DNA from: Chloropicon primus
Lineage: Eukaryota
Assembly: GCA_023205875.1 (NCBI GenBank)
Contig: CP060758.1
Coordinates: 248,001-312,000 of the forward strand
Length of the DNA stretch: 64,000 nt
Direction of reading: 5' to 3'
Below, one piece after another: positions 837-39,950 of the stretch; the stretch's first letter is position 1; each line of letters starts with the position of its first letter. The position numbers and the translations under genes are program-made. The notes under the pieces are model-generated. The model was not told the origin of the DNA, did not search any database, and saw only the letters and a program-made list of their open reading frames with translations.

Positions 837-2579
837 TCACTCTTCCTCCTTGACCTTGACGATGGAAGGGGCCGTCTTGCTGCGCGTTCTCTTCGACGAC
901 GGACGACGAGGAGCAGCTTTGCAGAGCCCGACCTCTTCCAGGTACTCTCTCTTCACAATGCATTGTTCCTTGTCGCTCAGCTTAAGAGATGCGTCCGCAA
1001 AGATGATCCTCAACGCCTCGTTGTAGTCCGCGATCTCCCTCTTCTTCTCCGGCGACTTGCTGTCATAACGCTGGGCCTCCTGCACTGCGCTGGCGTACTC
1101 CTCCTCCGTCATCAGGCCGGACTCGAGAGCCTCTCTCAAATCCAAAGCATAGGGAGAAGGAGAAGGAGATCTCGTCGTCTTCATGTTGTTGTTGTTGGTG
1201 GTGGCGTTGGAATTCTGCTCATTGAGGTTGTCGGCGGTTGATCGATTCAAGTATTCCTTGGCAATGGCATACGTTCCACGTTCAGTGCGAACAAAGCGGG
1301 GGCTCTGTGAACACGCACAACAGACAGTGACCCGCATTATCTCAACATCAGTAGAAAGAGAACCATCTTTCCGCTTGAACACATACAACTTCTTGGCCTG
1401 GATCTTGGCATGGATCTCTCTGTAGTGCAAGCTCCCTCCCGCTTCTTGAAGAACGCGGTAGATGGCATCCCGAAGCGGGGAGGTGCTGACAGCACCTTGA
1501 GTATTGGACCCATTCAAGTATTCCTTGGCAATGGCATACATTCCCAAGGCAGTGCGAACAAAGAGGGGGCTCTGTAAACAAGCAGTCCCGACCCTCTTCT
1601 GCATTACCTTCAGATCAGTATGAACAGAGCCATCTCTCCGCCTGAACACATACAACTTCTTCGCCCGGATCTTGGCATGGATCTCTTCGTAGTGCAAGCT
1701 TCCTCCCGCTTCTTGAAGAACGCGGTAGATGGCATCCCGAAGCGGTGAGGGCCTGACAGCACCTTGAGTATTGGACCCATTCAAGTATTCCTTGGCAATG
1801 GCATACATTCCCAAGGCAGTGCGAACAAAGAGGGGGCTCTGTAAACAAGCAGTCCCGACCCTCTTCTGCATTACCTTCAGATCAGTATGAACAGAGCCAT
1901 CTCTCCGCCTGAACACATACAACTTCTTCGCCCGGATCTTGGCATGGATCTCTTCGTAGTGCAAGCTTCCTCCCGCTTCTTGAAGAACGCGGTAGATGGC
2001 ATCCCGAAGCGGTGAGGGCCTGACAGCAACTTGAGTATTGGACCCATTCAAGGGTTCCTTGGCAATGGCATATCTTGCGTATGCAGTGCGAACAAAGAAG
2101 GGGCTCTTTATACAAGCAGAGTTGACAAGTCTCCGCATACTCTTCGGATCAGTATGAACAGAGCCATCTCTCCGCTTGAACACATATAGCTTCTTGGCCC
2201 GGATCCGTGCATGGATCTCTTTGACCTGCAAGCTCTTTCCCGCATCTTGAAGAACGAGATAGATGGCATCCACAAGAGTTCTCTTTCCATTCCTAGTCTT
2301 GCTAGGACGTGCGTTGCCTCTCATCATAGTCACCTCTGCTGGCTCAGGCTGAAAAGACGAACCCGCACCACCACTATCCTCCTCACTGTCACTCTCCTCT
2401 TCGATGATCGTCGTAGAGCCCGTCACGAAGCTCGCCAAACACTCTCCGTCCACGTCCATGTCCATGGCACCTGGGGGCAACCCTCCCTTGTCGTCACCAC
2501 CGTCGGCGGCCCTCGCCGCGATCATCGCCGCCGTCGACCTGGTGCGTGTCCAGCGTCTCTGTCTCGTGGGACGCCTCAT
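837..2579 (-). CDS. Protein with four tandem HARE-HTH-like (winged helix) domains
   Basis: Four 89-aa units of the form DAIYxVLQEAGGSLHYEEIHAKIRAKKLY...SPLFVRTALGMYAIAKE, resembling HB1/ASXL restriction-endonuclease HTH. First ATG at 2579 (track start is TTG/GTG-type); acidic N-terminal region and basic C-terminal tail. Confidence 0.7.
   Translation of the reverse strand: MRRPTRQRRWTRTRSTAAMIAARAADGGDDKGGLPPGAMDMDVDGECLASFVTGSTTIIEEESDSEEDSGGAGSSFQPEPAEVTMMRGNARPSKTRNGKRTLVDAIYLVLQDAGKSLQVKEIHARIRAKKLYVFKRRDGSVHTDPKSMRRLVNSACIKSPFFVRTAYARYAIAKEPLNGSNTQVAVRPSPLRDAIYRVLQEAGGSLHYEEIHAKIRAKKLYVFRRRDGSVHTDLKVMQKRVGTACLQSPLFVRTALGMYAIAKEYLNGSNTQGAVRPSPLRDAIYRVLQEAGGSLHYEEIHAKIRAKKLYVFRRRDGSVHTDLKVMQKRVGTACLQSPLFVRTALGMYAIAKEYLNGSNTQGAVSTSPLRDAIYRVLQEAGGSLHYREIHAKIQAKKLYVFKRKDGSLSTDVEIMRVTVCCACSQSPRFVRTERGTYAIAKEYLNRSTADNLNEQNSNATTNNNNMKTTRSPSPSPYALDLREALESGLMTEEEYASAVQEAQRYDSKSPEKKREIADYNEALRIIFADASLKLSDKEQCIVKREYLEEVGLCKAAPRRPSSKRTRSKTAPSIVKVKEEE
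1245..2283. repeat. Coding tandem repeat, 267-bp unit, ~4 copies
   Basis: Near-identical blocks recur at 267-bp spacing (shadow ORFs at 1348, 1615, 1882); middle two copies almost identical. Confidence 0.9.
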
Positions 2580-3083
2580 GATGAAATACAACACCGCACA
2601 ACACTGCACAGCTCGACGAAGACTGCCCTTCTCTTCCTCTTCACGAACCGAGCCAACAACTCACAAAACAAACTTCGAGGCACACCTCCACTAACGCCTG
2701 TCGTCTCAAAAGAAGGACCACTCTCCTTCTTGCCAAAACCTTCAGCCGAGGTATCAATCGAAAGCCCTTGAGATGCCCTTCCGTTCTTTTAACACCTCCT
2801 CCCCTTCTTCGTCCCCGTCCGTGCACAAAGTCCTCAACAAAAACGCCTTCCCTCTCCCTTGTCGTGCGACGTGCCCGGGCGTTACTTCTCACTCGCGTTT
2901 TCAACTCCTTATCTTCTTCTTCTTCTTCTAGGGTTTTTCGCGCGAGGAAATCCTCAGGAGGAGGGGACTCCTGGCGAACCAGGAGGATGGGGATGGAGGG
3001 AACGAGGGCAAGGGCACAAGAGGGAAGGGGCCAGACAAACTACGATACCAGGAAGGACTCTTGCTTGCTCTCCGCTGCTTTCG

Positions 3084-4433
3084 ATGGATCAAGAAGGGGA
3101 CGAGGGCATGAAGGGGGCAGGCCAAGCGACGGAGGTGGACTTCTTGCGTTACGAGTTCACGGACTATCACGGAATCTCACGATCAAAGGTGGTGCCAACC
3201 CGGAGGAGCGAGGGGAGGATACGCAGCGAGAAGCTCTTTGTCTATGGCGGTGTGCTTGGGATGACCACCACGAGCGAACCGGTCATGTTGGACGACCTTC
3301 TCGTGGACGGGTGCTGTCGTAACGTGAGGCTCTTGCCACAATGGGAAACGTTCCGAGTGCTTCCCCCGAATGGCAAGTACAAGACGGGGAGGGTTTTGTG
3401 CGAGTTGGGGGACCTTGCCGGCGACGGCTTCCTCAACGCGTACCCCCGAACGATGTGCAGGAGGCTCTTGGGCGAGCTGGAGGACATGGGCTACTCGATC
3501 AAGGGGGCCTTTGAGTACGAGTTCACGCTTGGCAAGATGGAGAATGGCGCCTTCACTCCCTTCTTCAACGACAGGCCCACCTTCTCGACCACGGTTTTCG
3601 CGCACTGTGAGGAGCTCCTTTATGACCTCGACCGGGAGCTTCAAGTGATGGGAATCGAAACGAACACGTTCAATTTAGAGTATGGCAAGGGACAAATCGA
3701 GATCACAATCAAGCCGGTCTTTGGCATTGAGATTGCCGACCAAGCCTTCACCTTTCGAACCACCGTGAAGGAGTTTTTCGCACGGAAAGGCTTGCTCGCC
3801 ACCTTCGTGTGCAGGCCGCTCAAGGATACCAAAGGGGCATCCAACGGAGGCCACTTCAATCATTCCCTGTGGGCGAAGAGCTCCGACTCTCGTAGCGCTT
3901 TCTTCAACGACGGGGAGCTGTCGGTGGTGGCCCACAGGTGGATCTCGGGAATCTTAAAGCATTCCAAGGGGCTTGAAGCCCTGTTTGCGCCGACGCTCTC
4001 CTGTTATAACAGAGTGAAACCCTGGTCATGGGCTCCCGTGAATGCAAGCTGGGGGGGAGAGAACAGGACCGCCGCCGTGCGGACCAAGGTGGACGGGGAG
4101 GACGGGACTTATCTCGAGTGCAGAGCGCCCTCCGCTTCAGCCTCGCCTTATCTGGTTTTGGCCGGAGTGCTGGCCGCTGGTATCAATGGCCTAAGGACGA
4201 CTGGCCCGGTTGAACTCCCACCAGAATCGCAAGCGAGCGCGTATGAAGACGAAACGCTCAAGCTCCCGACCAGTCTAGGCGAAAGCTTGCAAGCCTTGGA
4301 AGAGGATGCGGATTTAGTCCGGTCACTGGGTCCGCGCTTTGTCAAGTGGTTCAAGACCGTCAAGGAACACAAGCTCAGCAAAGATAATGTCGATGAGAAG
4401 CACGTTGACTTGGATGATCTCTCTCTGTTGTGA
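3084..4433 (+). CDS. Glutamine synthetase type I-like / lengsin-like protein
   Basis: Motifs FTDYHGISRSK, FEYEF, EYGKGQIE, NGGHFNHSLW, WGGENRTAAVR, YLECRAP, SPYLVLAG. ATG chosen at 3084 (MDQEG); start uncertain. Confidence 0.85.
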   Translation: MDQEGDEGMKGAGQATEVDFLRYEFTDYHGISRSKVVPTRRSEGRIRSEKLFVYGGVLGMTTTSEPVMLDDLLVDGCCRNVRLLPQWETFRVLPPNGKYKTGRVLCELGDLAGDGFLNAYPRTMCRRLLGELEDMGYSIKGAFEYEFTLGKMENGAFTPFFNDRPTFSTTVFAHCEELLYDLDRELQVMGIETNTFNLEYGKGQIEITIKPVFGIEIADQAFTFRTTVKEFFARKGLLATFVCRPLKDTKGASNGGHFNHSLWAKSSDSRSAFFNDGELSVVAHRWISGILKHSKGLEALFAPTLSCYNRVKPWSWAPVNASWGGENRTAAVRTKVDGEDGTYLECRAPSASASPYLVLAGVLAAGINGLRTTGPVELPPESQASAYEDETLKLPTSLGESLQALEEDADLVRSLGPRFVKWFKTVKEHKLSKDNVDEKHVDLDDLSLL

Positions 4434-4459
4434 ATAAATAATAAAAAGAATGATATGCG

Positions 4460-7450
4460 TTACACCACGTCGTGGTTGTCGTCGAAAGCGTCTGCGAGTG
4501 CATCGTCAGAGAGCCAGCCTTCCTTCACCTCCGTAACCATTTCCATGTACACCGCCTTTTTGGTCTGAATGAGGTCTCGGAAAACCACGAACGGGCTCTT
4601 GCTGCTCCTCTTACTCCTCACCAGCGTTTTCCCGTACATGTAATTCCTTCTTCCCTGGGCCCTCTTTGCGATCTTGTCTTGCCAGCCGACGCACAGCGCC
4701 CTTCGTATGACCATGGACAGCTGGGTCTTCACTCTCGGAGTCACAGCTTGCAGTCCAAGCCTTCCGCCCGCCTCGCTCACCGCTTTCTTCATGATCTCGT
4801 GCTCCTTCAGGTTGCTGCCTTCGCTGCTGTCCACCCTCGTCGCACAGATGCTGGCCAGCTGCCTCTTCAGCTGAAGGACGTCCCTGATGATTGTGGGGTG
4901 CAAGCCATTTCTCTGGCAGAAGGCCCGCAGGTTGTAAGAGTTCGTGGCCGCTTCCTCCTCGTACGCTCTCAGAACTTCCAGGGAGGCAAACACGTCGCCG
5001 CCGTACCTCTCCACAACCGTCCTCAAATAGTCTTTGCTGAGGCACTCGACCGATTCGCTGGACTCCTTGTTCCCCTTGCTGGCGTCCGGAAGTGGATCAC
5101 TCTTCTCTTGCGCAATGAAATTTTCAAAGCTCAAGATTGCAGCGACTGAGATGGCAGTCTGTAGACACTTGCCCAAGAGCTTTGGGGTCCCGCAATGCAT
5201 CACGGAGGCAACGAGCATCCTCGCGTGCCGCGGATTCACGGGGAACTTGGACAGGAAGCTGCCAAGAGAATTTATTTGCCCACTCTTAGGGTCCACCACA
5301 TCCAGTATTCTCAGGCACTTCTCCGCCTTGGAAAGGCTGCTGGGGTTGGGCTGGGTCGGAAAGGGGAAGCTCTCCGGCTTGTCCACGCCGATGGACTTGA
5401 GCTGCAGCACCACCGCTTCCAACGGCGTGTTCCTGATGTCTGGCACAGAGTACTGGGGGAAGTTGTCGTTGAAGAAAGCCGAGCTGAACAGGCGGTAACA
5501 GTGCCCAGGGCCCGTACGCCCCGCTCTTCCAGCCCTCTGAGTGGCGGACGACTTGGAGACCCAAGCAACCTCAAACTGGGTCAATCCAGAATCAACGCTC
5601 TTCACCGTCTTCTGCTTGGATCTTCCAGTGTCAACGACGTAACGAATTCCAGGAATTGTGATCGACGTCTCCGCCACATTCGTTGCGATGATGATGAGCC
5701 TGCTGTTTGCCGGAGGCTTCATGAAGGCCCTTCCCTGCGCCTCCCGCCCCAGCTTTGCATACAGGGGGACCACGATTGCATCTAGCCTCACATCTTTGCC
5801 CCTTCCTTCTTCCTCGTCCCCCTTGCCCGCGATTGTCCCCGGGAGCTCTTCTCGGTCCTCCTCCTCCGACTCGTCGTCATCCGATCTGTCTGCTTCCTCT
5901 TCGTCAAGATCAGAATCTTCCTCGTCACTCGAGAAATCCTCGGCGGCGTCTCCGTCAAAGGGGTTCAGGTCCCCCCCCTCCTCCTCGTCCTCCTCCTCGT
6001 CCTGACCGCTCTGTGCCGGGGCGGGCAGTTCCGCTCCTCGGCCCAGCCGCTTTTGTAGCCTCTTTGTCAGGTACATCACTTCTCTCTGCCCCGTGACGAA
6101 CACGAGAATGCCGCCGTTTGGCAGCTTTCGGTGGATGGCAACAACTTTCTTGTACGCCACGTCCAGGTAGCTGTGCATCTCAGTCTTGCGGCTAAAGTGA
6201 ATGGTCACTGGGAAGCGTTTCACGGGGATACTGATGACAGGAGGGGGTTCCCTGAACAGCCTCCTGTTCTCCACGAACTCCTTGGAGGACAAGGTCGCGC
6301 TCATGATCAGAAGCTTGAGCTCTTCGATCCCCGATCCCGGGTTTGAGGCCAGCTTCGCCCTCAAGGGGATGATCCTCGTCAGGAATCCGAGAATGACGTC
6401 CGTGTTCATGTTCCTCTCGTGAACCTCATCAAGGACGATGACGCTGTACTTTCTCAAGAGGGCGTCCTCTTGCAGCTCTCGCATCAATATTCCGTCCGTC
6501 ATGAACTTGAGCGCCGTTCTGCTTCCCATTCGTTTGTTGTGTCTCACCTGGTACCCGACGATGTCCCCAAGCTTGGTGTCCAGCTCCTGAGCCACCCTCT
6601 CAGCAGTGGAAGAGGCCGCGATTCTCCTGGGCTGGGTTATTCCCACCTGCCCCTTCGTCCTCTTGGTGCCGTATCCGGCCTCGTACAAAAATTGTGGAAT
6701 CTGCGTCGTCTTTCCGCTTCCCGTCTCTCCGCAGATCAAAACCGTGGCGTTGTAGTTCACCGCTTCCATGATCTCTTGCTCCATGGCGCAGATCGGCAGG
6801 GCCGTCCGCGAGTTCTCGATATCTTCCTTCCTCGTCACGTGGACCACGTAGTCCCCGGACCTCACGCTCTCCGCCTTCTTGCGCAACTCCTCCTCAAGCG
6901 TCGGTGCTCTTGGTACTCGCCGCTCAGGCTGCGGGTCCGTTTCCGCTCCGCCGTCATCCTCCCTCGCCTTGTCCACAGCGGCAGGCTTCGAGCTCGTCCC
7001 GGCACTTTTGTTCACCGTCTGCCGTCGGTCCTCCTCCCCTCGGCTTGGCCTCGAGGCCGGAGTCGCTTTTCCGGGCTTGCCCTTCCGAGGCTCGTCCCCG
7101 CCGACACCACCTGCAGTCCTTCCACCACCGACGGTCGCTCCCGGCACGAACAAGTCTTCTATGCCGCAAACGTCCCCGTTCCTCTCCCTTGGCGCGACGC
7201 TTGGGCCACCATTTGCCCCATTCCGGTCGCAGTCCGGTCCCCCTGCCCCCACCGCCTCCCCCTCCCTCTTGCTCGGTTCCTGCTTGCTGCCGTGCTTCCT
7301 CTCCCTCACGAGGTTCTTGTCCCAGCTCTGGAGATCCCGCGTCGATATCTGGTACTTGGCCAGGGTCTCCAACGCTCTGGAGGTCCTCGCTCTCTTCTCC
7401 TTCTTCGCCAGCGCCGCTAGCTCCTTCCTCCTCTTGCTCGACTTGCCCAT
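4460..7450 (-). CDS. DHX37: DEAH-box RNA helicase DHX37/Dhr1 (40S biogenesis)
   Basis: GETGSGKTTQIPQFLYEAGYG, TQPRR, DEVHER, MSAT, TNVAETSITIPGIRYVVD, QRAGRAGRTGPGHCYRLFSS; acidic insertion typical of Dhr1; first ATG MGKSSKRR at 7450. Confidence 0.9.
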   Translation of the reverse strand: MGKSSKRRKELAALAKKEKRARTSRALETLAKYQISTRDLQSWDKNLVRERKHGSKQEPSKREGEAVGAGGPDCDRNGANGGPSVAPRERNGDVCGIEDLFVPGATVGGGRTAGGVGGDEPRKGKPGKATPASRPSRGEEDRRQTVNKSAGTSSKPAAVDKAREDDGGAETDPQPERRVPRAPTLEEELRKKAESVRSGDYVVHVTRKEDIENSRTALPICAMEQEIMEAVNYNATVLICGETGSGKTTQIPQFLYEAGYGTKRTKGQVGITQPRRIAASSTAERVAQELDTKLGDIVGYQVRHNKRMGSRTALKFMTDGILMRELQEDALLRKYSVIVLDEVHERNMNTDVILGFLTRIIPLRAKLASNPGSGIEELKLLIMSATLSSKEFVENRRLFREPPPVISIPVKRFPVTIHFSRKTEMHSYLDVAYKKVVAIHRKLPNGGILVFVTGQREVMYLTKRLQKRLGRGAELPAPAQSGQDEEEDEEEGGDLNPFDGDAAEDFSSDEEDSDLDEEEADRSDDDESEEEDREELPGTIAGKGDEEEGRGKDVRLDAIVVPLYAKLGREAQGRAFMKPPANSRLIIIATNVAETSITIPGIRYVVDTGRSKQKTVKSVDSGLTQFEVAWVSKSSATQRAGRAGRTGPGHCYRLFSSAFFNDNFPQYSVPDIRNTPLEAVVLQLKSIGVDKPESFPFPTQPNPSSLSKAEKCLRILDVVDPKSGQINSLGSFLSKFPVNPRHARMLVASVMHCGTPKLLGKCLQTAISVAAILSFENFIAQEKSDPLPDASKGNKESSESVECLSKDYLRTVVERYGGDVFASLEVLRAYEEEAATNSYNLRAFCQRNGLHPTIIRDVLQLKRQLASICATRVDSSEGSNLKEHEIMKKAVSEAGGRLGLQAVTPRVKTQLSMVIRRALCVGWQDKIAKRAQGRRNYMYGKTLVRSKRSSKSPFVVFRDLIQTKKAVYMEMVTEVKEGWLSDDALADAFDDNHDVV

Positions 7451-7515
7451 GGCGTCACAACGCGCATCGACCGTGCCCTCTCGCGAACCCAATTCAGGCA
7501 AACTCGGTGTCAATG

Positions 7516-7529
7516 GAAAGATCTCGAGA
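7516..7529 (-). promoter_or_regulatory. Recurrent upstream motif, sense-strand TCTC-N5-CTTTC (representative copy, upstream of DHX37)
   Basis: GAAAGATCTCGAGA on plus; related copies at 155, 7698, 7939, 11825, 11999, 15406, 35621, 59748 and 60271, all intergenic. Confidence 0.6.
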
Positions 7530-8185
7530 CGAAGGTTTCATCCCCGTGATCCACCGTATCGATTGCACCGCTCCCTTTCCCTCCTCGGCACGAGAAGGTT
7601 CCTCTTCCCTCGCCAGCAGCAGAGCACCCACTCAGCACCTCCCCTCGGTCCTCCTCGCTCGGTCCTCCCGTCAAATTCTTCGAGTGAGGGCTCTTCGGAA
7701 AGATCTCGAGACGAAGTTTCGTCCTGTCGTCCTGGCGCGCTCCCTTACTCTCTCCCTTGCCCTCCTCTCCCCCTCCTCCTCGTCTCTTCCGGCTCTCCCC
7801 CTTGGACGAGCAAAGCGATCGCAAGGAGTTTGGATAAGAGACTCAGAGAGGCGGTGGTGTCTAATCGCGTCGTCGAGGAGGAGCGAGCGACGAGGAAGGG
7901 AAGGGAAAGTGAGGAGAGTGGCTAGACACGGTGATACGTCTCACGATCTTTCGATCGACTCCTTGAACGAAGGATTTGGTTCACTGGAGAAGATTTGGCA
8001 ACGAGAAGAACGTTTTTCGTGTCAGATTTTGCCTCATCTGAAGGTGTGTTCGAGGAGACGCAGAGGGCGAGGAAAGCGGCGAGAGGGGAAGGAGAAGCAC
8101 CAAAGCGAAAGTTCATCTCTTCCTCTTTCGATTGGTGGGTCGCTTGACCGGTTTGGCTGGCCGGAGGCGAAGTGTTTTGGAAGGA

Positions 8186-8845
8186 ATGAGGATGATGAGG
8201 TTGGGATGGAGAGGACCTGCTGGGTTGATGAAGGTGGGAGTGCGAGGGAGCGGAGGGCAAGGCGTGGGGACGAGGAGGTGCCCGAGGCACGAGGGGACCT
8301 TCCGATGTAACGTGTTCGACTCCGAGGCTGCGCAAGATTGTCGAATGGAGGACGCAGAGGCGTACGAGTTCTTCGACTTGGAGAAGGCTGCTTCTGCTCC
8401 TGGTTCGGAGAGCGAGGCCGCGACGACGTCTCGTTCCGTTCACGGCAGCTTCACGGTGCAGGAGCAAGTGGCGAGGAACTTTACGAGGACGCAAAGGTAC
8501 CTTCCTCACGGGGGCCTCGGGTTGTGCCTCATCGTGTGCTGGGCCTACTTCGCGAACAGCAAGAAGCTGGCCACGCTGCAGGAGAGGAAGGCCAAGGAGA
8601 GGAGGGTCCTGGAGGAGAAGAAGGATTGGCTCAAGTCCAGGACTTTGCTGTCCATGTCGCCCCAAGACGAGCAGCAGCAGAAGGTGGATAGCACGGAGTA
8701 TCCCGAGAGTTTGATGGCGGCGGAGGACGACGGGAGTCTGGCGCGTCCGACGGATAAGGTTTACGACAGCTTCCTCAGGGACAGCAAGGCCGATCGAGTC
8801 CTCGCGCCCTCCGAAATCTTCCTGGACGGCGGGGAAGGGTCGTGA
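8186..8845 (+). CDS. Hypothetical single-TM protein, possibly plastid-targeted
   Basis: Open frame with Arg-rich N-terminus, one hydrophobic segment (GGLGLCLIVCWAYFA), coding-like codon use; convergent with next gene across a short AT-rich gap. Confidence 0.6.
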   Translation: MRMMRLGWRGPAGLMKVGVRGSGGQGVGTRRCPRHEGTFRCNVFDSEAAQDCRMEDAEAYEFFDLEKAASAPGSESEAATTSRSVHGSFTVQEQVARNFTRTQRYLPHGGLGLCLIVCWAYFANSKKLATLQERKAKERRVLEEKKDWLKSRTLLSMSPQDEQQQKVDSTEYPESLMAAEDDGSLARPTDKVYDSFLRDSKADRVLAPSEIFLDGGEGS

Positions 8846-8947
8846 GACCTCGTGACCGCCTGTAGAGCTCCTTGCTACTGTTGTTGTACACTTAAAAACC
8901 TTATTAATACAAACCTGTTTCTTAAACGACGACGACCAAAGGTTCCC

Positions 8948-9643
8948 TCACTGCTCCTTCAGCTTCACCTTGGTGGCTGGGCCCACGACCGGCTTCCCCC
9001 TCGATCTGCCCGCCGTCCTCTCCCTGGTGTCGCTTCGGAGCATGAACAGAAAGGTCTCCAGCAGGAGGCCGGCGAAGGCGCCGACGAGCCCGCAGCACAG
9101 GGGAACCACCTCGCCCTCTCCCTCGCCGCCCGTGACCTTGAGAGACACGTAGTAACCGAATGCGAAGAGACTCCCCATCACAGCCACGGTGTTCAAGCCC
9201 AATCCAAGCTGGTCTCTGTAACTCGACATGTACTCGTAGCCTCCCTTCTCCTGGGTTGAGGTGGGTTCGATGTCCTTGACCATGTCTGCATACTTCCTCT
9301 CCTCGAGGTCTGCCCTAATCTTCTCCAGCCTCTTGACGAGCTCCGGGTTCCGTCCAGGCTTCGGCTCCGGCGATGGGTAACACAACTTCGCATCGCGGCA
9401 CACATCCTGCAGCCAAGGACCTCCCTCACCCTCATCATCGTGGACATCCTCATCGTCGTGGGCACCCTCGCCATCCTCATGAGCGTCTCCTCGTTTTGCC
9501 TTTCGTATGGTGCGCAGAGCCTGAAGCAAGGTGGGCCAAGGGACCCAGTCCTCTTGTGCGAAGTCCTCGGCCTCGCGATAAGACAAGGAGGCGGCCGAGG
9601 TAAGCGCCTCCCTCACCGTCGGAGTCACCTCCACGAGGGCCAT
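8948..9643 (-). CDS. TMEM199: V-ATPase assembly factor Vma12/TMEM199
   Basis: P..RNPELVKRLEKIRADLEERKYADMVKDI followed by two TM helices (LGLGLNTVAVMGSLFAFGYY; GLVGAFAGLLLETFLFM). Confidence 0.8.
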   Translation of the reverse strand: MALVEVTPTVREALTSAASLSYREAEDFAQEDWVPWPTLLQALRTIRKAKRGDAHEDGEGAHDDEDVHDDEGEGGPWLQDVCRDAKLCYPSPEPKPGRNPELVKRLEKIRADLEERKYADMVKDIEPTSTQEKGGYEYMSSYRDQLGLGLNTVAVMGSLFAFGYYVSLKVTGGEGEGEVVPLCCGLVGAFAGLLLETFLFMLRSDTRERTAGRSRGKPVVGPATKVKLKEQ

Positions 9644-9886
9644 TCGCCAACTCCAGAGAGAGAGAGCTTAGATGCTGGGCTGTGCAGGTTGTCCAAGTGT
9701 GCGAGGGAGGAGGAGGAGGGAGGGCTTCATGAGGGATGCGGGGAGGGAGAGGTTCTCTCTGCATAGAGGTCAGCCTCTTTACTGGAGATGCTGGGTGATG
9801 GCCATATTCATATTTGGAGACCACACTTCACTTGGGATGAATGAAAGTTGCTTCACATCATCATAATTGATCATCAGTTGTGTTTT

Positions 9887-11669
9887 TCAGGTCCAGAGTC
9901 TCTCTAGAGCGTTCACAAAGCTTTGGTCGAAGGAAGCCTCCGAGAACCTGGCAATAGAGCTCCTCGCGGCGAGGCACATCTTTTCCCTCTCCTTCTCGCT
10001 GATGCAGAGGGCGTTGACGAGCGCGCTGGCGTACTCGTCCGTGGTGGAGGCGAGGTACCCCGTGGCCTGCAAGCTCCCCTTCTTCTCGTCCCTCAGCGGG
10101 GTGATGATGTCCGCAGCGGGGCCTCCGCTGTTGTTGGCCACGGCGATGACCCCCGAAGCCATGTACTCCACGATGCCGATGCCAAAGTGTTCGTCGACCA
10201 TGGTGTGTATGCCCACCACCGCCTGGGACAGGAGGTCCCTTATCGTGCTGTAGGGCACGTTCAAGAGAAATTCTACGCGGTCATCACCGAGCCCGAGCTC
10301 CTTTGCCCTCGCTTTCAAGTCCTCCACTCTCTGCCTGTCCGCATCGCTCCTGCACCCGCCCACGAGCACCAGTTTGCTTTGGAGAATGACCTTGAGGTTC
10401 TTGGAAGACCCTTCGGCACGCTTCAGAGCGAGGGCGTAAGCCTCCAGCTGCATGCGGTGGTCCTTCTCTGGTCTGAATTGGCCGATGGACAAGATGACGG
10501 GACTCTTCGTGTTTCTCTTCGGGGACTTGAGCGGAATCTTGGTCAAGCTCTCCGTGTTGCAAGGTGGAAAGACTCTCAGGGGTCGTATATACGCCGCCCT
10601 CCTCTGCCACCAGTATTTCCACCAGAAGATGTCCTGCACGTGCCCCCGCGTCCAGCTCGAGTTCGTCATGCAGACCTGGGCAAAGCTCCCGACGCACCCG
10701 TAGATCAGGGCGAAGAGCTTGTAGTAGACCATCTTGGCATAGCTCGAGGCCGTGCCCGTGGAGGCGTTGTTGTACATTCGTTTCCTCTGCTTCACCCTCT
10801 GCAGCATGTTCGTGCTTATCACTGGGTAGTGGACGTAGCAGGCAGTTCGGCACCCGAAGAGCCTCGCCAAGGGCAGAACGAACGGCACCCCGCACGTGTC
10901 TATGTACACCTGGGGCGTCAGCTTGTACAGGGCTTCCCCTCCCACCAGCGTCGATGTCAGGGACTGGAGCAAGAGGGTGAGTCTCGGGTACATGGACGGG
11001 TTCAGCAGGGAGGTAGTCTTGAGCTCCACGACCTCCAGCCTGGAGGGAAGAATCACTCCGAACTTCTCCCTCGCCCTCTCTCTCATGTACCGCGACCAGA
11101 ACGTCTCCTCCTCCTCCTCCTCCTCCCCTTCCACAGAGAACTCCTCGCTTCCATCGGACAACACCTCTCGGTCCTGTGCCACAGCCGGGAGGTCCGTGTA
11201 CAGCACCACCGATGCCTTTGGCCTCGCCGCCATCACCGCTCTCATCGCGCACCACAGCACCTTCACACAAAAACAAGTAAACCATGACGCAGGAAGACAA
11301 GACATCATCTATCAATCATCCATCCATCCATCCACGTGTTCCTCATCCAGAACAGAAGAAAAAAGTAAGGCTCGAGGGAGAGAGAGAGAGAGAAGGAAAG
11401 AGGGAGAGGTCGAGGGAGGACATGTTCGATCTGTTCCCTCCTCCTTCGTGATGTTCGCGACGCTTTCTTACCCTCTCCCCTCCTCCACCATCGTTTGCCA
11501 CGGGGTGAAAGAATCCCACAGTATTCCTCTTCACTCTCGTTGCCCTTGTCAAGTCAAACGCCTTGGCACCAAGAGCAGTCGCCGTCGCCGTCAAAAGCAA
11601 ACCTCCCGTCATCCCCCATAGGCTGTACCCTCCGCCACCCGACGTCGTCGTCGTCGAACCTCCTCTCAT
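9887..11669 (-). CDS. ALG11: Alpha-1,2-mannosyltransferase ALG11 (2 exons; intron 11261-11471)
   Basis: Exon 1 ends GFFHPVANDGGGGER|GTAAG; exon 2 starts AAG|VLWCAMRA; later CYVHYPVIS, NSSWT, GQFRPEKDH, EHFGIGIVEYMASG. Confidence 0.92.
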
Positions 11670-14765: not shown

Positions 14766-15308
14766 CTACGCGCCCGAGACGGACTGCAGTTCGTTCTTCA
14801 CCCTCTTCAGAGAGTCCGTGAGCACGGTCAGCATTCCCCTGCCCGCCTTGAATCGGATCTGCTCGTCTCCACCCTCTCCCGCGACTTTCAGATCGAAGTC
14901 TATCTTCGGCTCCACCGTGGCCTGGTCGACGACCTGCCACGAGACGTCCTTCAGCTTGGGCAGACTTACCATGGTCTGGACGTCTCCCTCTCTCCACCTC
15001 TCGCTATTGTCCACCAGAACCGCACGCATCACTTTCAGCGAGGCAGCCTTGGCATTCACCTCCGACAGCATGCCGTCCAATTCCTCCAGGCTGTACACTG
15101 CAGCTCTCTTCAGTCCCCTCATGACTTTCAGTGCCTCCCTTGAGCTTGCCCCTCCCAGTCCCAAAGCTTCTACCGGTGCGAGGTCTTCCATCGTCTCGGT
15201 CGTGCTCGTCGTCTCCACCAAGTCCAGAGATGTCTTGATCCTCTCCTCTGCCCCCCTCGCCCCCTCACGTCCCACCAAACCCTCCACCGTCTCCATCAGT
15301 GATTCCAT
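14766..15308 (-). CDS. COMM-domain (COMMD family) protein
   Basis: 180 aa; C-terminal LPKLKDVSWQV...PKIDFDLKV...IRF...L..LTDSLKRVKNEL fits the COMM domain pattern. Confidence 0.7.
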   Translation of the reverse strand: MESLMETVEGLVGREGARGAEERIKTSLDLVETTSTTETMEDLAPVEALGLGGASSREALKVMRGLKRAAVYSLEELDGMLSEVNAKAASLKVMRAVLVDNSERWREGDVQTMVSLPKLKDVSWQVVDQATVEPKIDFDLKVAGEGGDEQIRFKAGRGMLTVLTDSLKRVKNELQSVSGA

Positions 15309-15659
15309 ACTTGCACCTTGCCTCGGTAAAACACGTTTCGAAGGAAGCTTGTCACCTCCTCACCTCTCGACCAATGCCTCAAAATCCTCCACAAAGGTAT
15401 CAAACGAAAGATCACGAGATGTAGCTTTGTCCTAAACCTTTTCCTCTCCCTTTCCTTGCGCCCCTCCTCTCCAAATGGTTCCTGTTCTCTCGCCGCTCTC
15501 CAAAGGTCCCTCCCAAAGGTCCCAGCTGCTCCTTGTTATGGTGTTCAGACATCAGATCAAAACACAGCACACAGAAAAGTCACGAAAGGACGGTAGGGAA
15601 ATCACAGTCAATACTGGAAGCACAAAGGCAAGTTCTCCTTTCCACTGAAAGAGAGAAAC

Positions 15660-15836
15660 ACGGAGAGGCCGGCCACAACTTACCTGTTAGTTTTCTGCAA
15701 AGGTCGTTTCACCGAGTTTGTAAGTTTCTCGGCAGGGTAATTCAGCCCTACCACGACCATTCCACCGTACATGAACGAATACTTCCGCCCACGCACGGCA
15801 GCCCGTACTAACAAACGTATGTGCAACCCTGAGGAG
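15660..15836 (-). ncRNA. Predicted Fanzor omega-RNA (scaffold ~15684-15836, guide ~15660-15683)
   Basis: Directly 3' of the nuclease stop. Complementary pairs seen: 15822-15826/15695-15699, 15753-15758/15702-15707, 15746-15752/15731-15737, 15728-15732/15712-15716 (overlaps the previous stem), and pseudoknot-type 15807-15813/15685-15691. Position matches known TnpB/Fanzor loci. Confidence 0.65.
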
Positions 15837-18100
15837 TTACACACTTTTTGGTTGACGCAAGTGCTTCAGGAGGACGTTGCGTGCCCCGTTCACATCCCGA
15901 CCGCACTTGAAGCCACACTTCTGGCACTTGTACACCTCTGCTCCACCCAGGTTCTTCTTGATGTGTCCGCACCTGCCACAGGTCTTGGAGGTGTACTCCT
16001 CCGTCACGATCGCCAGCTCACTGCCGTGCAAGAGCACCTTGGAAGCCAAGAACGTTCTGAACGCATAGTGCCTCAACGTCAAGAGCGTGCGAGCCGTCTT
16101 CTTCCTGATCACTCGGCGTCTCCCGTTGTTGTTCTTCTTCGCCATGTCTTGGGACTTGAACTCCGGGAGGAGGATTGTGTCGAACCTCCTGCATAGATCG
16201 TTGGCTACCTTTTTGTGAAGCTCGTTCGTCAGACCTCGAAGTTTCTCCATGCAGGCGTATTGCTGTCTCTTCAAGTCGCGGCGGTCGAGGTAAGGGAGCT
16301 TCACCTTTGGGTCTTTGCGCTCGGAAATGATCTCATCAATCCTCCAGCAGAGGTTGAACAGCCTCGCGAAGCCTCGCTCGCCCGTGGCATACTCCCCGAC
16401 GCCTTCTTGCGGCGAGTACGACGTCTGAAAGGTCCTGACTCCCGGATCCAGGGCGACAACCTTCCGCTTGTTCTCAGGCTTCAGGGGTGGCAGGCGATCC
16501 CATGGCGTCGCGATGGGAATGTGCATGTGGAACTGCCCAAGGCGATTTCTTGTGATCTTCACGGCACCCTCGATCTTGCCCCCGGGGATCTCCTCCGTCA
16601 AGTACAGGGGCCCGCCGGCCATCTTCTCCTTGAACACCTCCAGCTTGGTCCACTTGCGTCGTTTTTTGTGCTTCGTATCATCCTTGTGCCTCGTGTTTGG
16701 CCTTTCGATCGTCTCCACGTTCTTTAACTCTCTTGCATCAATTTCAATAGTCCAAGAGCTTGGTTGCTGACGTTGACGATACTTGAGAACGAAGCGGTGC
16801 CCCTTCTTCTCGCCGCGCTCCTTCATCGCTTCCTGCTTCGCGGTGTTCGAATCCCATGCCTTGATGAGACTTCGCACGGCAGCTTGTCTGATGGCACAGG
16901 GGGTTTCCTTCAGCCAAGGATGCTTCTGATTCACAAAGGCCCCGCTAACGTAGTCCCGGTCCTTGCCCACTTGGATGCGAAAAGCTCTGCCTCCAATTTG
17001 GCTCTCGAGTCTCTTCTCTCTGGCCGCGAAAAGCTCTGCCTCCTGTTTTGTCCATGGCCGTGGAGAGCATTGGATTTCTTTCAGCTCTTTCTCCAGGCCC
17101 TCAAAGACCTCAGGGCGTCGCGGTTTGGCCGTCACAAATCTGTCCAGCAGGACGGTCCAAACCAGCGGAAAACGCTCCTTCTTGACCGCCTCCAAACACT
17201 TGTTGTATGTGAAACGCGCAGCTCCCATCCAGTTGCAAAGTGTTCTCGCCTGCTCAGGGTTCAAGCGCATCCTAAGCTTCCTCGTCCGTATCACCGTTCG
17301 CTCCGACAATAGCTTGGAGGTCTTCAGTTTCTGCTCCCTCTTCCTTTTGGCGGGCGACTGCAATGTCTCCACGGATACCACAGAATCTTCTGGAAGGTTC
17401 AAGCACGACCTCCATCCCGTCTTCGGACACTTTACCTCTTCAAGTTCTCTCTTCATCGATGAGAACCAGGTCTTCTTCACGCTGTCGTCCGCCAAGCCAC
17501 CCGGCTGCTTCCCTGCTTTCTTCCCCCTCTTGTTCTTCTTCTTCTTACCCTTCTTCTTGTTCTTCTTCTTGCCCTTCTTGCGAGGCTTCTTGCGAGGCTT
17601 GCCTGACGAGCTCGAACTCTCACCCGCAGAGGCGTCCGCCTCCGGCTGCTTCCCCTTCCGCTCCCCCCCCCGCTTCTTGCGAGGCGTGCTCGAACCCTCC
17701 TCGAAAGCAGAGGCGGGGTCGTCCAGCGGCTTCTCCTTCCGCTTCCCCCCCCGCTTCTTGCGAGGCGTGCTCGAACCCTCACCCGCAGAGGCGGGGTCGT
17801 CCGCGATAGGAAGCATGCACTTCTCGTAGAGCCACTTCAACGCCTGATTCCAGAACCGACGTAACGGCTCCGTCGTCGGAGACTCCTGCCCCGACTTCGA
17901 AGCGCCCTGAGCATGACTCTCGCCAGAGTGCGACCTCCTTGTGGAACTCGTCGAGCCACTCCCCTGCTTCTCCTTTTTCTTACGGCGCTTCCCTGATCGC
18001 GCCATGACTGTTAGGGTTTCACTCGGCGTCCTCCTCCCTTCCTCTCGCGAGGCTAGATTTTTTACCAGTGCCTTGCCCAGCAAGTGAGAACACGAGCAAA
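15684..18100 (-). mobile_element. Putative non-autonomous IS607-like/Fanzor element (or domesticated remnant); left end not defined
   Basis: Fanzor ORF plus omega-RNA-like right end finishing ...CTAACAG|G; no transposase, TIR or TSD recognised; left boundary is a guess. Confidence 0.4.
15837..18005 (-). CDS. Fanzor (Fanzor2 / IS607-type TnpB-like RNA-guided endonuclease), 722 aa
   Basis: RTRKLRMRLNPEQARTLCNWMGAARFTYN (OrfB HTH); PWLKETPCAIRQ; RuvC-I VVALDPGVRTF; RuvC-II ILLPEFKSQDM; EEYTSKTCGRCG...YKCQKCG zinc finger; RuvC-III RDVNGARNVL; K/R-rich N-terminus; ATG at 18005 (MARSGKRRKKK). Confidence 0.93.
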   Translation of the reverse strand: MARSGKRRKKKEKQGSGSTSSTRRSHSGESHAQGASKSGQESPTTEPLRRFWNQALKWLYEKCMLPIADDPASAGEGSSTPRKKRGGKRKEKPLDDPASAFEEGSSTPRKKRGGERKGKQPEADASAGESSSSSGKPRKKPRKKGKKKNKKKGKKKKNKRGKKAGKQPGGLADDSVKKTWFSSMKRELEEVKCPKTGWRSCLNLPEDSVVSVETLQSPAKRKREQKLKTSKLLSERTVIRTRKLRMRLNPEQARTLCNWMGAARFTYNKCLEAVKKERFPLVWTVLLDRFVTAKPRRPEVFEGLEKELKEIQCSPRPWTKQEAELFAAREKRLESQIGGRAFRIQVGKDRDYVSGAFVNQKHPWLKETPCAIRQAAVRSLIKAWDSNTAKQEAMKERGEKKGHRFVLKYRQRQQPSSWTIEIDARELKNVETIERPNTRHKDDTKHKKRRKWTKLEVFKEKMAGGPLYLTEEIPGGKIEGAVKITRNRLGQFHMHIPIATPWDRLPPLKPENKRKVVALDPGVRTFQTSYSPQEGVGEYATGERGFARLFNLCWRIDEIISERKDPKVKLPYLDRRDLKRQQYACMEKLRGLTNELHKKVANDLCRRFDTILLPEFKSQDMAKKNNNGRRRVIRKKTARTLLTLRHYAFRTFLASKVLLHGSELAIVTEEYTSKTCGRCGHIKKNLGGAEVYKCQKCGFKCGRDVNGARNVLLKHLRQPKSV

Positions 18101-18544
18101 CATTTTGTGGGTTGTCCTTTGGGTGTGACCAAACTGGTATACACTGGAATCCCACCAACAGGGGAAAACCTCCAACACTCCTGTCGGCTGGCGACGGCCG
18201 AGAGAGAGAGAGAGGGAGAGAGGCGACGACTTTGCGATCAGGGGGGCAAGGAAGGCGAGGAGGCGAGGAGGGGAGAAAAACGAGAGAAAGATCTGCTCGA
18301 GATCTTTTCAACGACACCTTACTCGACCCATTTGGTGCTCGGATTGGTCGAGGAATCGGCTCGGAGGACGGAAAGGGAAGGAGAAACCACCCGAGTGACA
18401 CGCCTTGTCGAGGACGGTGGCGGCGAGGACGGCAAGGGGAGGTTAAAGAGGAGGGTGTTGAAAGAAAGTAGACCTCGCGTGCGGGTTGCTTGCCTGGTTT
18501 CGTGGTCGGAGGTGAAGTTCGCCGTCTGTTGCGAAACGATAACG

Positions 18545-19876
18545 ATGGGAACTGGCGTGAGAGTGAAGGTGGTGGACCTGGGGGAGGAGAAGAAGGTGGC
18601 GAAGAATGGAGCGTACGCGTGCGCGCCGATAGTGGCAACGTTCCCTCAAAGCGTAGAGCGGTTCCAGGAGCGAAGCGGCGGACTGAAGGCGGAGCTCTAC
18701 GCGTCCAAGGACCACCTGCAGAGGAAGGAGTTTTATGTGTTGGCCAAAGGGAACGAGTCAGGTGGAGGGCTTCAGTACGTGGGTTCGTCCCTGGATTCGA
18801 GCTTGGGGCGTCCGGTTCGATACCTCGTGGGCTACCTGGACAAGAAGACGAGCACCTTGGAGTTTGTGAAGCCGCTGCACCACGCGACCGTGGCTCACAT
18901 GAGAGTGTATCGGGGCAAGGACGACGTCCTGAACAAGGGCACGGAGGGCGAGAGCAATGCGTCGAAGATGGATTATAGCGCCCTGGAATCGAGGCGGAAC
19001 CTGCTCAAGGAGTTCGGCTCGAATAAGATCAAGCGGGTGATTGCGAAGCGCGAGAGAACACAGCTGAAGGACGCGAGCTCGCTCTTCTTGGAGGACCAGG
19101 ACACTGTGCTGGACTGGGCGAGGAAGAAGGCCGACTCCTCGATGAGGAAGGGAATGAACGAGAAGGAGCAGCTCGCGCACCTCACCGAAAGCAGGAGGAG
19201 CGTTCTCCCCTTCTACAACTTGAAGGCGACGACTGCTTCCGAGGCCTACCCTCTTGGCAAGTTCGTGAGCGCGGCGGCCTGGCAGGCTCTCAAGTCGACC
19301 CAGTACTACCGCGACGTCTCCGAGGGAGCCGAGACCTGCGACGTGTACGTCCTGAATCGCCACAGCCGCCTGAACGCGGAAGGCAGCTCGGAACGGGAAA
19401 GCGTGCTGAAGGCCCTCTGTCTGTACGCCGTGCTCAAGTGGCTGCACACGTCCCACAGCAGGAGCATCAGGTGTCGCTTGGGGCAGGGCGTGGGGGCTCT
19501 GGCTCAGCAACTCGAGCTGCCGCAAGAGTTTGTCCAGGAGATGGTGCTCAAGTTCTTCAAGGAGGGGTCCCAGGGGGATTCCAAATTCTCGTCGTGGGAG
19601 TGCTCCAAGGAGGGCAGAATCTCACTGAAGCTGCACCTGATCCTGCTTCTCTTGATCCTTGAGGACTTTGACGTCGGCGCGCCAACCCTTGCGGAGGAGA
19701 TCGGCGTTCCCGCCCAGGAGGTCAAGTCACTGGCCAAGGAGTTGGGCTGCGACCTCAGCGGTGACAAAGTGAAGCTCCTGAAACGAAAGAGGACGTCGGA
19801 ATCCGGTGGCGCGACCATCGTGGACCTCGAGAGCAAGCTTCCTCGGATACAGATCAAGAGGGCTCGAGCGAGGTAA
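18545..19876 (+). CDS. RPA49: RNA polymerase I subunit A49/RPA49 (PAF53)-like
   Basis: RYLVGYLDKKTSTL, RRNLLKEFGSNKIKR, LPFYNLKATTASEAYPL, C-terminal KELGC; ATG MGTGVRVKV at 18545. Confidence 0.8.
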   Translation: MGTGVRVKVVDLGEEKKVAKNGAYACAPIVATFPQSVERFQERSGGLKAELYASKDHLQRKEFYVLAKGNESGGGLQYVGSSLDSSLGRPVRYLVGYLDKKTSTLEFVKPLHHATVAHMRVYRGKDDVLNKGTEGESNASKMDYSALESRRNLLKEFGSNKIKRVIAKRERTQLKDASSLFLEDQDTVLDWARKKADSSMRKGMNEKEQLAHLTESRRSVLPFYNLKATTASEAYPLGKFVSAAAWQALKSTQYYRDVSEGAETCDVYVLNRHSRLNAEGSSERESVLKALCLYAVLKWLHTSHSRSIRCRLGQGVGALAQQLELPQEFVQEMVLKFFKEGSQGDSKFSSWECSKEGRISLKLHLILLLLILEDFDVGAPTLAEEIGVPAQEVKSLAKELGCDLSGDKVKLLKRKRTSESGGATIVDLESKLPRIQIKRARAR

Positions 19877-39522: not shown

Positions 39523-39950
39523 CCTTACCTCTTCCTCGTCAGAGATCCATTCCTTTCATGCGACCACCCAATCGAAAGAGAAAGACACGAGGATTCCATC
39601 CATCGAGTCTTTTACCCCCTCAACCACCCGTCCTCGCCGTCACAAGGCGCTCAACTGCAGCGCTTCCCCCTGCGGCGTGGAGCGCTCAGGTGGTGATTTT
39701 GATTGCACTCAAAATGAACTGATTGCACTCGAAATGAACTGAACCCTTTTGAATTGGCGCGAGACAGAGAGGACAGAGGAAGGGCCAAGTGGGTGAGAGA
39801 AGTCCCTTGTGCGGAGGCAAGATGGAGACAAGATGGAGGAAAGGTGGGATCTTTGGAGGGATCAGGGCTCAAGGCATGTTTGATTTCAAGTAGAGCCCTT
39901 GGTGGGCTCTTTTGTGTCCATCGGAAGCCCCTTTTTTTGTGGAGGGACAG

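Follow-up and report, generated by a model that had tools for sequence, protein, structure and literature searches.

The window, by which we mean the whole 64-kb stretch of DNA analysed here, is a compact and intron-poor piece of eukaryotic genome from Chloropicon primus, a very small marine green alga. Its minus strand carries a gene for a Fanzor2 nuclease with HTH and TNB domains (PF12323 and PF07282), surrounded by eukaryotic housekeeping genes (Table 1). The protein shows the marks of Fanzor as they are defined in the available text of Yoon et al. 2023 (PMC10711439). The RuvC1 DPG motif is intact as ALDPG and invariant across 31 aligned sequences, the catalytic E stands six residues ahead of the zinc finger (TEEYTSKTCGRC) and the third D lies in GRDVN; the triad is thus intact, within compact TnpB-like domains in a eukaryotic setting. 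The N-terminus is lysine-rich. The five best relatives are 89-99% identical (97% for the best match), come from Chloropicon primus and bear the source name 'putative IS605 transposase'. The best solved structural relative is PDB 9B0L, 'TnpB-like protein L79', which we take to be the mimivirus Fanzor2. The available part of Suppl. Data 6 of Lemieux et al. 2019 (PMC6731263) gives 25 putative IS605 transposase genes for C. primus. Elsewhere in the window, an open reading frame of 3,463 aa (39912-50303, plus strand) contains repeats about 909 bp apart and has weak Pfam matches only, and 837-2609 (minus strand) encodes a protein with tandem HARE-HTH-like repeats.

Within the Fanzor2 gene, in an overlapping frame, lies the relic of an IS607 serine recombinase. 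It matches the resolvase frame of L001, one of the metagenomic relatives of the locus, at 11/38 residues (E 5e-4, pairwise), has stops upstream, and gave no Pfam match over 17317-17439. In L001, L004 and L005 a resolvase frame is present and overlaps the Fanzor start. No transposase mobilising the window element was identified. In another relative, L003, long inverted repeats (about 700-1430 and 3304-3700) stand on either side of a Fanzor2 of 52% identity, and no pseudoknot motif is recognisable; here too an element with inverted ends may have made a capture.

Table 1. Features of the Fanzor2 element and its surroundings (positions in the window).
Feature	Position	Strand	Basis or remark
RNA polymerase I subunit A49 gene (divergent host gene)	18545-19876	plus	domain search
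Target-site duplication AGGAG, left copy	18178-18182	minus	direct-repeat search
Fanzor2 transposon, non-autonomous	15534-18177	minus	2,644 bp; TGTT...AACA degenerate inverted ends
Fanzor2 open reading frame	15837-18005	minus	ATG 18005, stop 15837; 722 aa from first ATG
Decayed IS607 serine-recombinase relic, overlapping frame	17317-17439	minus	pairwise match to L001 resolvase
Omega-RNA scaffold (predicted)	15684-15836	minus	153 nt, from stop codon to end; 5' end not fixed
Stem-loop 1, CGU/ACG around 8-nt loop UUGUUAGU	15804-15817	minus	covariation
Pseudoknot 5' strand	15812-15807	minus	within the 8-nt loop of stem-loop 1
18-bp helix	15762-15801	minus	pair probabilities 0.75-1.0; overlooked by the first-pass annotation
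GGUAGGG/CCCUGCC hairpin	15731-15752	minus	pair probability 1.0
Pseudoknot 3' strand ACUAAC	15686-15691	minus	covariation
Splice donor consensus CAG/GTAAGT at scaffold end	15678-15686	minus	sole such 9-mer in the 64-kb window
GT-AG intron (likely)	15532-15683	minus	152 nt, or 158 nt with alternative acceptor at 15526; joints in X5 and X6
AG-free, T-rich final 80 nt of element	15534-15613	minus	branch-like CTGAT at 15555-15551
Target-site duplication AGGAG, right copy	15529-15533	minus	its AG (15533-15532) is the splice acceptor
Predicted guide after splicing	15512-15531	minus	assumed length; last 3 nt of duplication, then host flank
Downstream host gene, weak COMM-domain match	14766-15308	minus	E 0.0016, below Pfam cut-off

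The gene is carried by a transposon whose limits can be seen in several ways. In the DNA run X1, contig depth is ~120 outside and 3,000-11,000 within ~15530-18180, as depth summed over contigs, which gives no copy number. AGGAG is the sole direct repeat of at least 5 nt shared by both junction windows, and it encloses TGTT...AACA; such a repeat together with 4-nt inverted ends arose in 46/5000 shuffles. Copies in DNA contigs stay alike to 15534-15532, i.e. past the scaffold end at 15684. All eight contigs that depart from the right end of the element do so after an AG (four in X2, two in X5 and two in X6, some from the same locus); the four flank contigs of the DNA run X2 depart at 15532 or 15530, and at least four contigs of X1 depart at 15532. 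The AG might alternatively be read as the last two bases of the element, with a duplication of 3 bp, which would leave the spliced product unchanged. The window copy is the only one for which both ends were seen; what was visible of the others comes from the ends of contigs and from an indel table in the literature. A left end near 18434 was considered and rejected, as a separate repeat lies there and depth drops near 18184. This second repeated segment (18304-18433), upstream of the A49 gene and outside the element, has diverged paralogues in DNA and in likely-RNA runs.

The first-pass annotation had expected an IS607 junction with a GG core. We found an element that is not IS607-ended, given its decayed transposase frame, its inverted ends and its 5-bp duplication. 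It holds a relic in place of a serine recombinase gene, and its end, rather than falling at the scaffold with a GG core and no duplication, falls 150 bp further on. Inverted ends, duplication, multiple copies and polymorphism place it with the published Fanzor2* elements. The polymorphism comes from the indel table (PMC6731263, available part of Suppl. Data 8), where the element appears as three heterozygous insertions, at chr3:123680, chr6:369520 and chr17:327259, one of which opens with the same left end as the window element. According to these entries, empty alleles exist. In the two insertions of this table with a visible right end, the flank comprises 25 and 26 bases, that is 20-21 beyond the 5-bp duplication, and the single visible left end carries 3, with none extra. 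Duplications of 25 nt were considered as the source of the extra flank, and the window copy has none. The extra bases would fit, weakly, a loss of the target from empty alleles once these had been cut, or else an artefact of the variant caller. One of the two right flanks in the table reads AC-AG rather than AG, possibly through long-read error.

Some other traces of rearrangement deserve mention. An internally deleted copy joins 17405 to ~15693 (loose ends in X3 and X5); most of the open reading frame and of the scaffold is gone, the remnant ends GG as in the IS607 relatives, and the GTAAGT donor is kept. The 7-mer CTAACAG, identical to the scaffold end, recurs at 18008-18014 just before the Fanzor ATG, where other copies have an insertion. 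At 18063, a loose end of poly-T is seen in a contig of X5. Finally, a 13-nt direct repeat in the right flank (15498-15523) overlaps the far end of the predicted target, and may be a repair scar or due to chance.

Judging from comparison with related loci, the stretch behind the Fanzor2 stop codon is a pseudoknotted omega-RNA scaffold ending at 15684. All the motifs that the first-pass annotation had listed there occur at their positions (among others UUGCA 15826-15822/UGCAG 15699-15695 and UGUUAGU 15813-15807/ACUAACA 15691-15685), and its pseudoknot between the last two of these is above chance and shows compensatory changes in IS607-type relatives. In the metagenomic relatives, a 3-4-bp stem located 16-22 nt past the stop codon closes a loop of 8 nt, and a 6-mer near the scaffold end pairs with the final six bases of this loop. 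Of the closest relatives, six can be read at the 3' end, and four of these (L001, L002, L004 and L005; not L003 and L006) show the pseudoknot and the small stem; L007 ends before its own stop codon. Pseudoknot and stem are also found in two giant-virus loci, L105 and L108, where the pairing is partly by construction, as these loci were chosen from the motif scan; that scan covered 122 loci whose 3' end could be read and had some match in 43, mostly by chance at other offsets. The loop/3'-end motif arises in 15-72 per 1000 shuffles.

The annotation had asked for covariation across homologous loci. Since MAFFT misaligned L005, L105 and L108, the formal count used 4/7 rows, namely the window, L001, L002 and L004. 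In this sequence-only alignment 35/35 cells pair and 4/9 pairs have changed on both sides, a covariation reached by 7/500 shuffles, and slid controls pair in 20-54%; the four sequences are few and related. The divergence of L105 and L108, which are identical up to two bases past the 6-mer, and the open frame that L002 enters at the equivalent point, weakly suggestive of a hydrolase (E 0.18), put the scaffold end two bases past the pseudoknot, in agreement with the ...CUAACAG proposed earlier. These two bases are AG in the window element, and GG or CG in relatives.

The rest of the proposed fold needed revision. The hairpin GUACGG/CCGUGC (15808-15793) overlaps a pseudoknot strand and the closing stem, and has a pair probability of 0; CCGUGC pairs instead within the 18-bp helix (15801-15762, P about 1). 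The alternative CCGAG/CUCGG likewise has a pair probability of 0, whereas GGUAGGG/CCCUGCC was right, and a common copy variant (15744) falls in its loop. The outer stem UUGCA/UGCAG and the closing stem GGUCGU/ACGACC do form if the pseudoknot strands are held free, but they have no counterpart in relatives. The folding energy is -41.7 kcal/mol for the original set of helices, -52.0 for the corrected set and -58.6 for the unconstrained fold, pseudoknot energy excluded. The small stem rests on covariation, since unconstrained folding, which is unable to model the pseudoknot, does not form it. Folding of the whole stretch is modest (z -2.2; 6/200 shuffles equally good), and Rfam gave no match in 15300-18400, group I ribozymes included.

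What follows the scaffold is the more surprising part of the locus. The first-pass annotation placed the guide directly after 15684. As 150 bp of element separate the scaffold from the host, this guide lies inside the element, where its 20 nt are near-identical among copies and form the first bases of a GT-AG intron. The annotation had named homology ending at another position among the observations that would speak against it, and homology does end elsewhere, at 15534-15532. It had rightly seen no second match in the window (none with fewer than 5 mismatches to the 20-mer), and the search that it proposed against viruses returned 0 exact 18-mer matches in IMG/VR; further copies or targets were likewise 0 in GTDB genomes. 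The hairpin at 15633-15657, thought to delimit the guide, does exist (-9.0 kcal/mol) and is intronic. It pairs the pyrimidine tract, covers the AGs at 15645, 15638 and 15635, and may mask cryptic acceptors.

This intron likely starts at the base after the scaffold, and it is spliced out in likely-RNA assemblies. Its donor coincides with the exact base at which homologous scaffolds end. CAG/GTAAGT occurs once where 0.15 would be expected in the window, and GTAAGT at 1 in 10,000 window positions. The AG-free stretch of 80 nt is matched in 4% of shuffles and by 128/12,784 of the 80-mers of the window. CTGAT, branch-like by sequence, stands 20 nt ahead of the acceptor, which itself adjoins the boundary between element and host. 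Copies vary within the supposed guide (at 15668, 15675 and 15677) and keep GTAAGT.

In one X5 contig, 15684 is followed directly by 15531, the omitted 152 nt having GT..AG ends, and the contig runs into the downstream host gene at 14766-15308; one X6 contig omits 158 nt, using an acceptor CAG six bases further on. Loose ends at the donor lead into four other sequences (from 15682 in X5, 15684 in both X5 and X6, 15683 in X6 and 15683 in X7), the partner at 15684 being identical in X5 and X6, which have different study codes. The total is six junctions into five host sequences, including the window locus with its two acceptors, in three runs and three studies. The four other partners may be boundary AGs or distant host acceptors or exons. 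An X3 contig stopping at 15533 gives a hint in the same direction, as this is expected where spliced and unspliced paths meet. In the DNA runs, X2 shows 0 joints and 0/5 loose-end rows at the donor, and X1 has a depth of 0 across the joint. Intron and scaffold have contig depths of 105 vs 1888 in X5, 170 vs 1280 in X6 and 34 vs 282 in X3, and about equal ones in DNA, although contig depth measures poorly and these ratios are a hint only. Neither a joint from the cryptic acceptor at 15645 (a 39-nt intron) nor one across the whole element was seen, and we discarded the idea that the entire element is an intron.

Naturally, these joints must be read with care. The four informative runs are RNA by our guess, so that the sequence behaves as a U2 intron, with GT...AG ends, removed in RNA and kept in DNA, to the extent that this guess is right; X16, which is recorded as RNA, has 0 contigs at the locus, which is no proof of absence. 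Each joint is one contig, with short sides of 29 and 27 nt, and contigs carry no strand, ends or levels. Unspliced contigs are present in X3, X5 and X6 (depth 54 vs 57 at the window locus in X6).

Taken together, these results are probably best explained by a route in which splicing supplies the guide. The Fanzor transcript would read through the right end of the element, and the U2 spliceosome would remove the intron from the scaffold end to the first AG past the element, as in the X5 contig, whose exon joined to the scaffold starts at 15531. Host flank would thereby be placed directly behind the pseudoknot as a guide distinct for each copy, and the long spliced RNA would be trimmed to about 170 nt and loaded on Fanzor. 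Self-processing of the 5' end is described for bacterial TnpB and as open for Fanzor in the available text of PMC10690162. The empty allele would then be cut by the nuclease where the target site supplies a TAM of 3 nt with AG at its end, and repair would copy the element back into its own empty insertion site, i.e. homing. In the sources as available, Fanzor2 TAMs are CCG and TAG (PMC10432273) and restorative homing via repair is treated in a review (PMC13565253). The predicted TAM at the empty site consists of the AG of the left duplication plus one flank base. By taking away the piece of transposon between scaffold and flank, splicing would give each copy a flank-derived guide for its own empty site; with AG at the end of the exon and the AG of the duplication as acceptor, the spliced RNA would agree with the empty site starting from the duplication. 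Where relatives have GG or CG, the scaffold here has AG, and this A suits a better donor as well as an AG target. Among the IS607 relatives, the flank directly follows the scaffold, whereas here 150 bp of transposon end intervene; the intron might thus remedy a problem that arose once inverted ends had enclosed an IS607 Fanzor2.

Yet, splicing might be real and serve the mRNA instead, by way of a host poly(A) site or nonsense-mediated decay, with a nuclease that is no longer usefully guided. The element lacks a 3' end of its own. A junction far behind a stop codon can trigger nonsense-mediated decay, and one located 153 nt past the stop codon could damp the element's own expression. The joined contigs are long and mRNA-like (817-2,534 nt), acceptor choice is loose (152 vs 158 nt), and the deletion derivative retains its donor without nearly all of the scaffold (loose end 17405, X3 and X5). 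We nevertheless find this account unlikely, for it leaves aside a donor set on the exact scaffold-end base, a retained pseudoknot and catalytic triad, and the AG after the element end in 8/8 flank contigs.

It is also conceivable that the guide RNA works unspliced, and that all copies share one fixed internal guide, its end marked by the hairpin at 15633-15657 and its target a virus, the element or a site in the host. The unspliced contigs of X3, X5 and X6 would fit, and a short RNA would escape these assemblies. But the only known match of this stretch, in the window and against the viral 18-mers, is the element itself; the stretch drifts among copies and opens with a consensus donor that is used, which makes a fixed guide quite improbable. 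Suspicion might finally fall on the joints themselves, as products of template switching, of chimeric assembly over the repeat that the scaffold is, or of genomic deletions in other strains, all the more so as the runs are not recorded as RNA and the short sides measure less than 30 nt. Artefacts would hardly share one donor across six junctions, end at AG in both mappable cases, reproduce the same partner in two studies and spare the DNA runs that contain the same repeat; we regard them as very unlikely.

The spliced guide has difficulties of its own. A copy-variable flank after the scaffold is found in the spliced likely-RNA contigs, with five partners, and not in DNA. Mixed acceptors (152 vs 158 nt) and unspliced contigs imply that guide ends are mixed. 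At the window locus, the empty site and the donor junction both read C-AG. The CAG TAM needed by the empty site of this copy would therefore allow an unspliced guide to target every copy, and a guide from the alternative acceptor to target the filled flank. This conflict of self-targeting counts against the mechanism. Folding did not separate spliced from unspliced guides by accessibility (0.27, 0.29, 0.37). One could go further and imagine an active homing element in need of the host spliceosome, where one AG serves as TAM core, acceptor and restored scaffold end, where the choice of splicing sets the guide, and where empty alleles survive only by losing 20 bp of target. We consider this bolder reading possible, but doubtful enough to be held tentatively.

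The protein, the element and the pseudoknot were known before; the spliced route to a guide is new as far as our search of the literature goes. That search, which left aside figures, supplements on bioRxiv and the bulk of subscription papers, brought up no case in which spliceosomal splicing makes the guide of a Fanzor or TnpB. The same holds for the available text of PMC10711439, PMC10530073, PMC10432273, PMC11423790, PMC3627910, PMC10690162 and PMC13565253, where introns are those of Fanzor coding regions and group I IStrons. The strings 'splic' and 'intron' are absent from the text and supplement text of PMC10711439, a search that did not extend to figures 2A, 4A and S3; Fig. 4A or S3 of Yoon et al. 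may bear on C. primus RNA. PMC12633428, in its available part, merely cites the C. primus element.

Capture by transposons whose ends part scaffold and flank raises the question of how Fanzors keep a programmable guide. Two answers have been published, recoding of the end into the scaffold and loss of the pseudoknot, and splicing the end away would be a third one. It would tie the making of guide RNA to the mRNA machinery of the host. Our results also caution that prediction from DNA alone may yield the wrong guide, and they give the exact scaffold boundary, as needed for assays of this nuclease. The alga being diploid, cultured and endowed with heterozygous insertions, homing is directly testable.

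Known systems share parts of this arrangement. In introner-type and Ds-type transposons, splice sites are made by target duplication, and splicing hides the element from host mRNA. By analogy, the acceptor would here too be supplied at the boundary between element and host, with the difference that no joint over the whole element was seen. The omega-RNAs of IS607 TnpB and Fanzor2 (ISXfa1, in the available text of PMC10711439; PDB 9B0L) also lie behind the stop codon, and in them too the first stem-loop pairs with the scaffold 3' end, followed by two fixed bases and the guide. The window element differs in having no serine recombinase, no GG core and no flank adjacent in DNA, and its scaffold is longer (153 nt vs 82-115 nt in relatives). 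With the C. primus Fanzor2* described by Yoon et al. and Lemieux et al. (PMC10711439 and PMC6731263, as available) it shares the protein family, at 97% identity to the best match, and, following the former, a layout of the cut-and-paste kind, including a duplication and degenerate inverted ends. In the published model, the inverted end and the duplication are recoded into the scaffold; here, they lie outside it, the inverted end within the removed intron. IStrons (PMC10690162 and PMC13565253, in their available parts) come close in another respect, since a single junction is splice site, transposon end and omega-RNA boundary. There, a group I ribozyme removes the whole element by self-splicing and competes with the omega-RNA, whereas the window element has neither an Rfam match nor an element-wide joint, and its GT-AG intron removes only the last 150 bp. 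The relation found in IStrons would thus be reversed: splicing would make the guide instead of competing with it.
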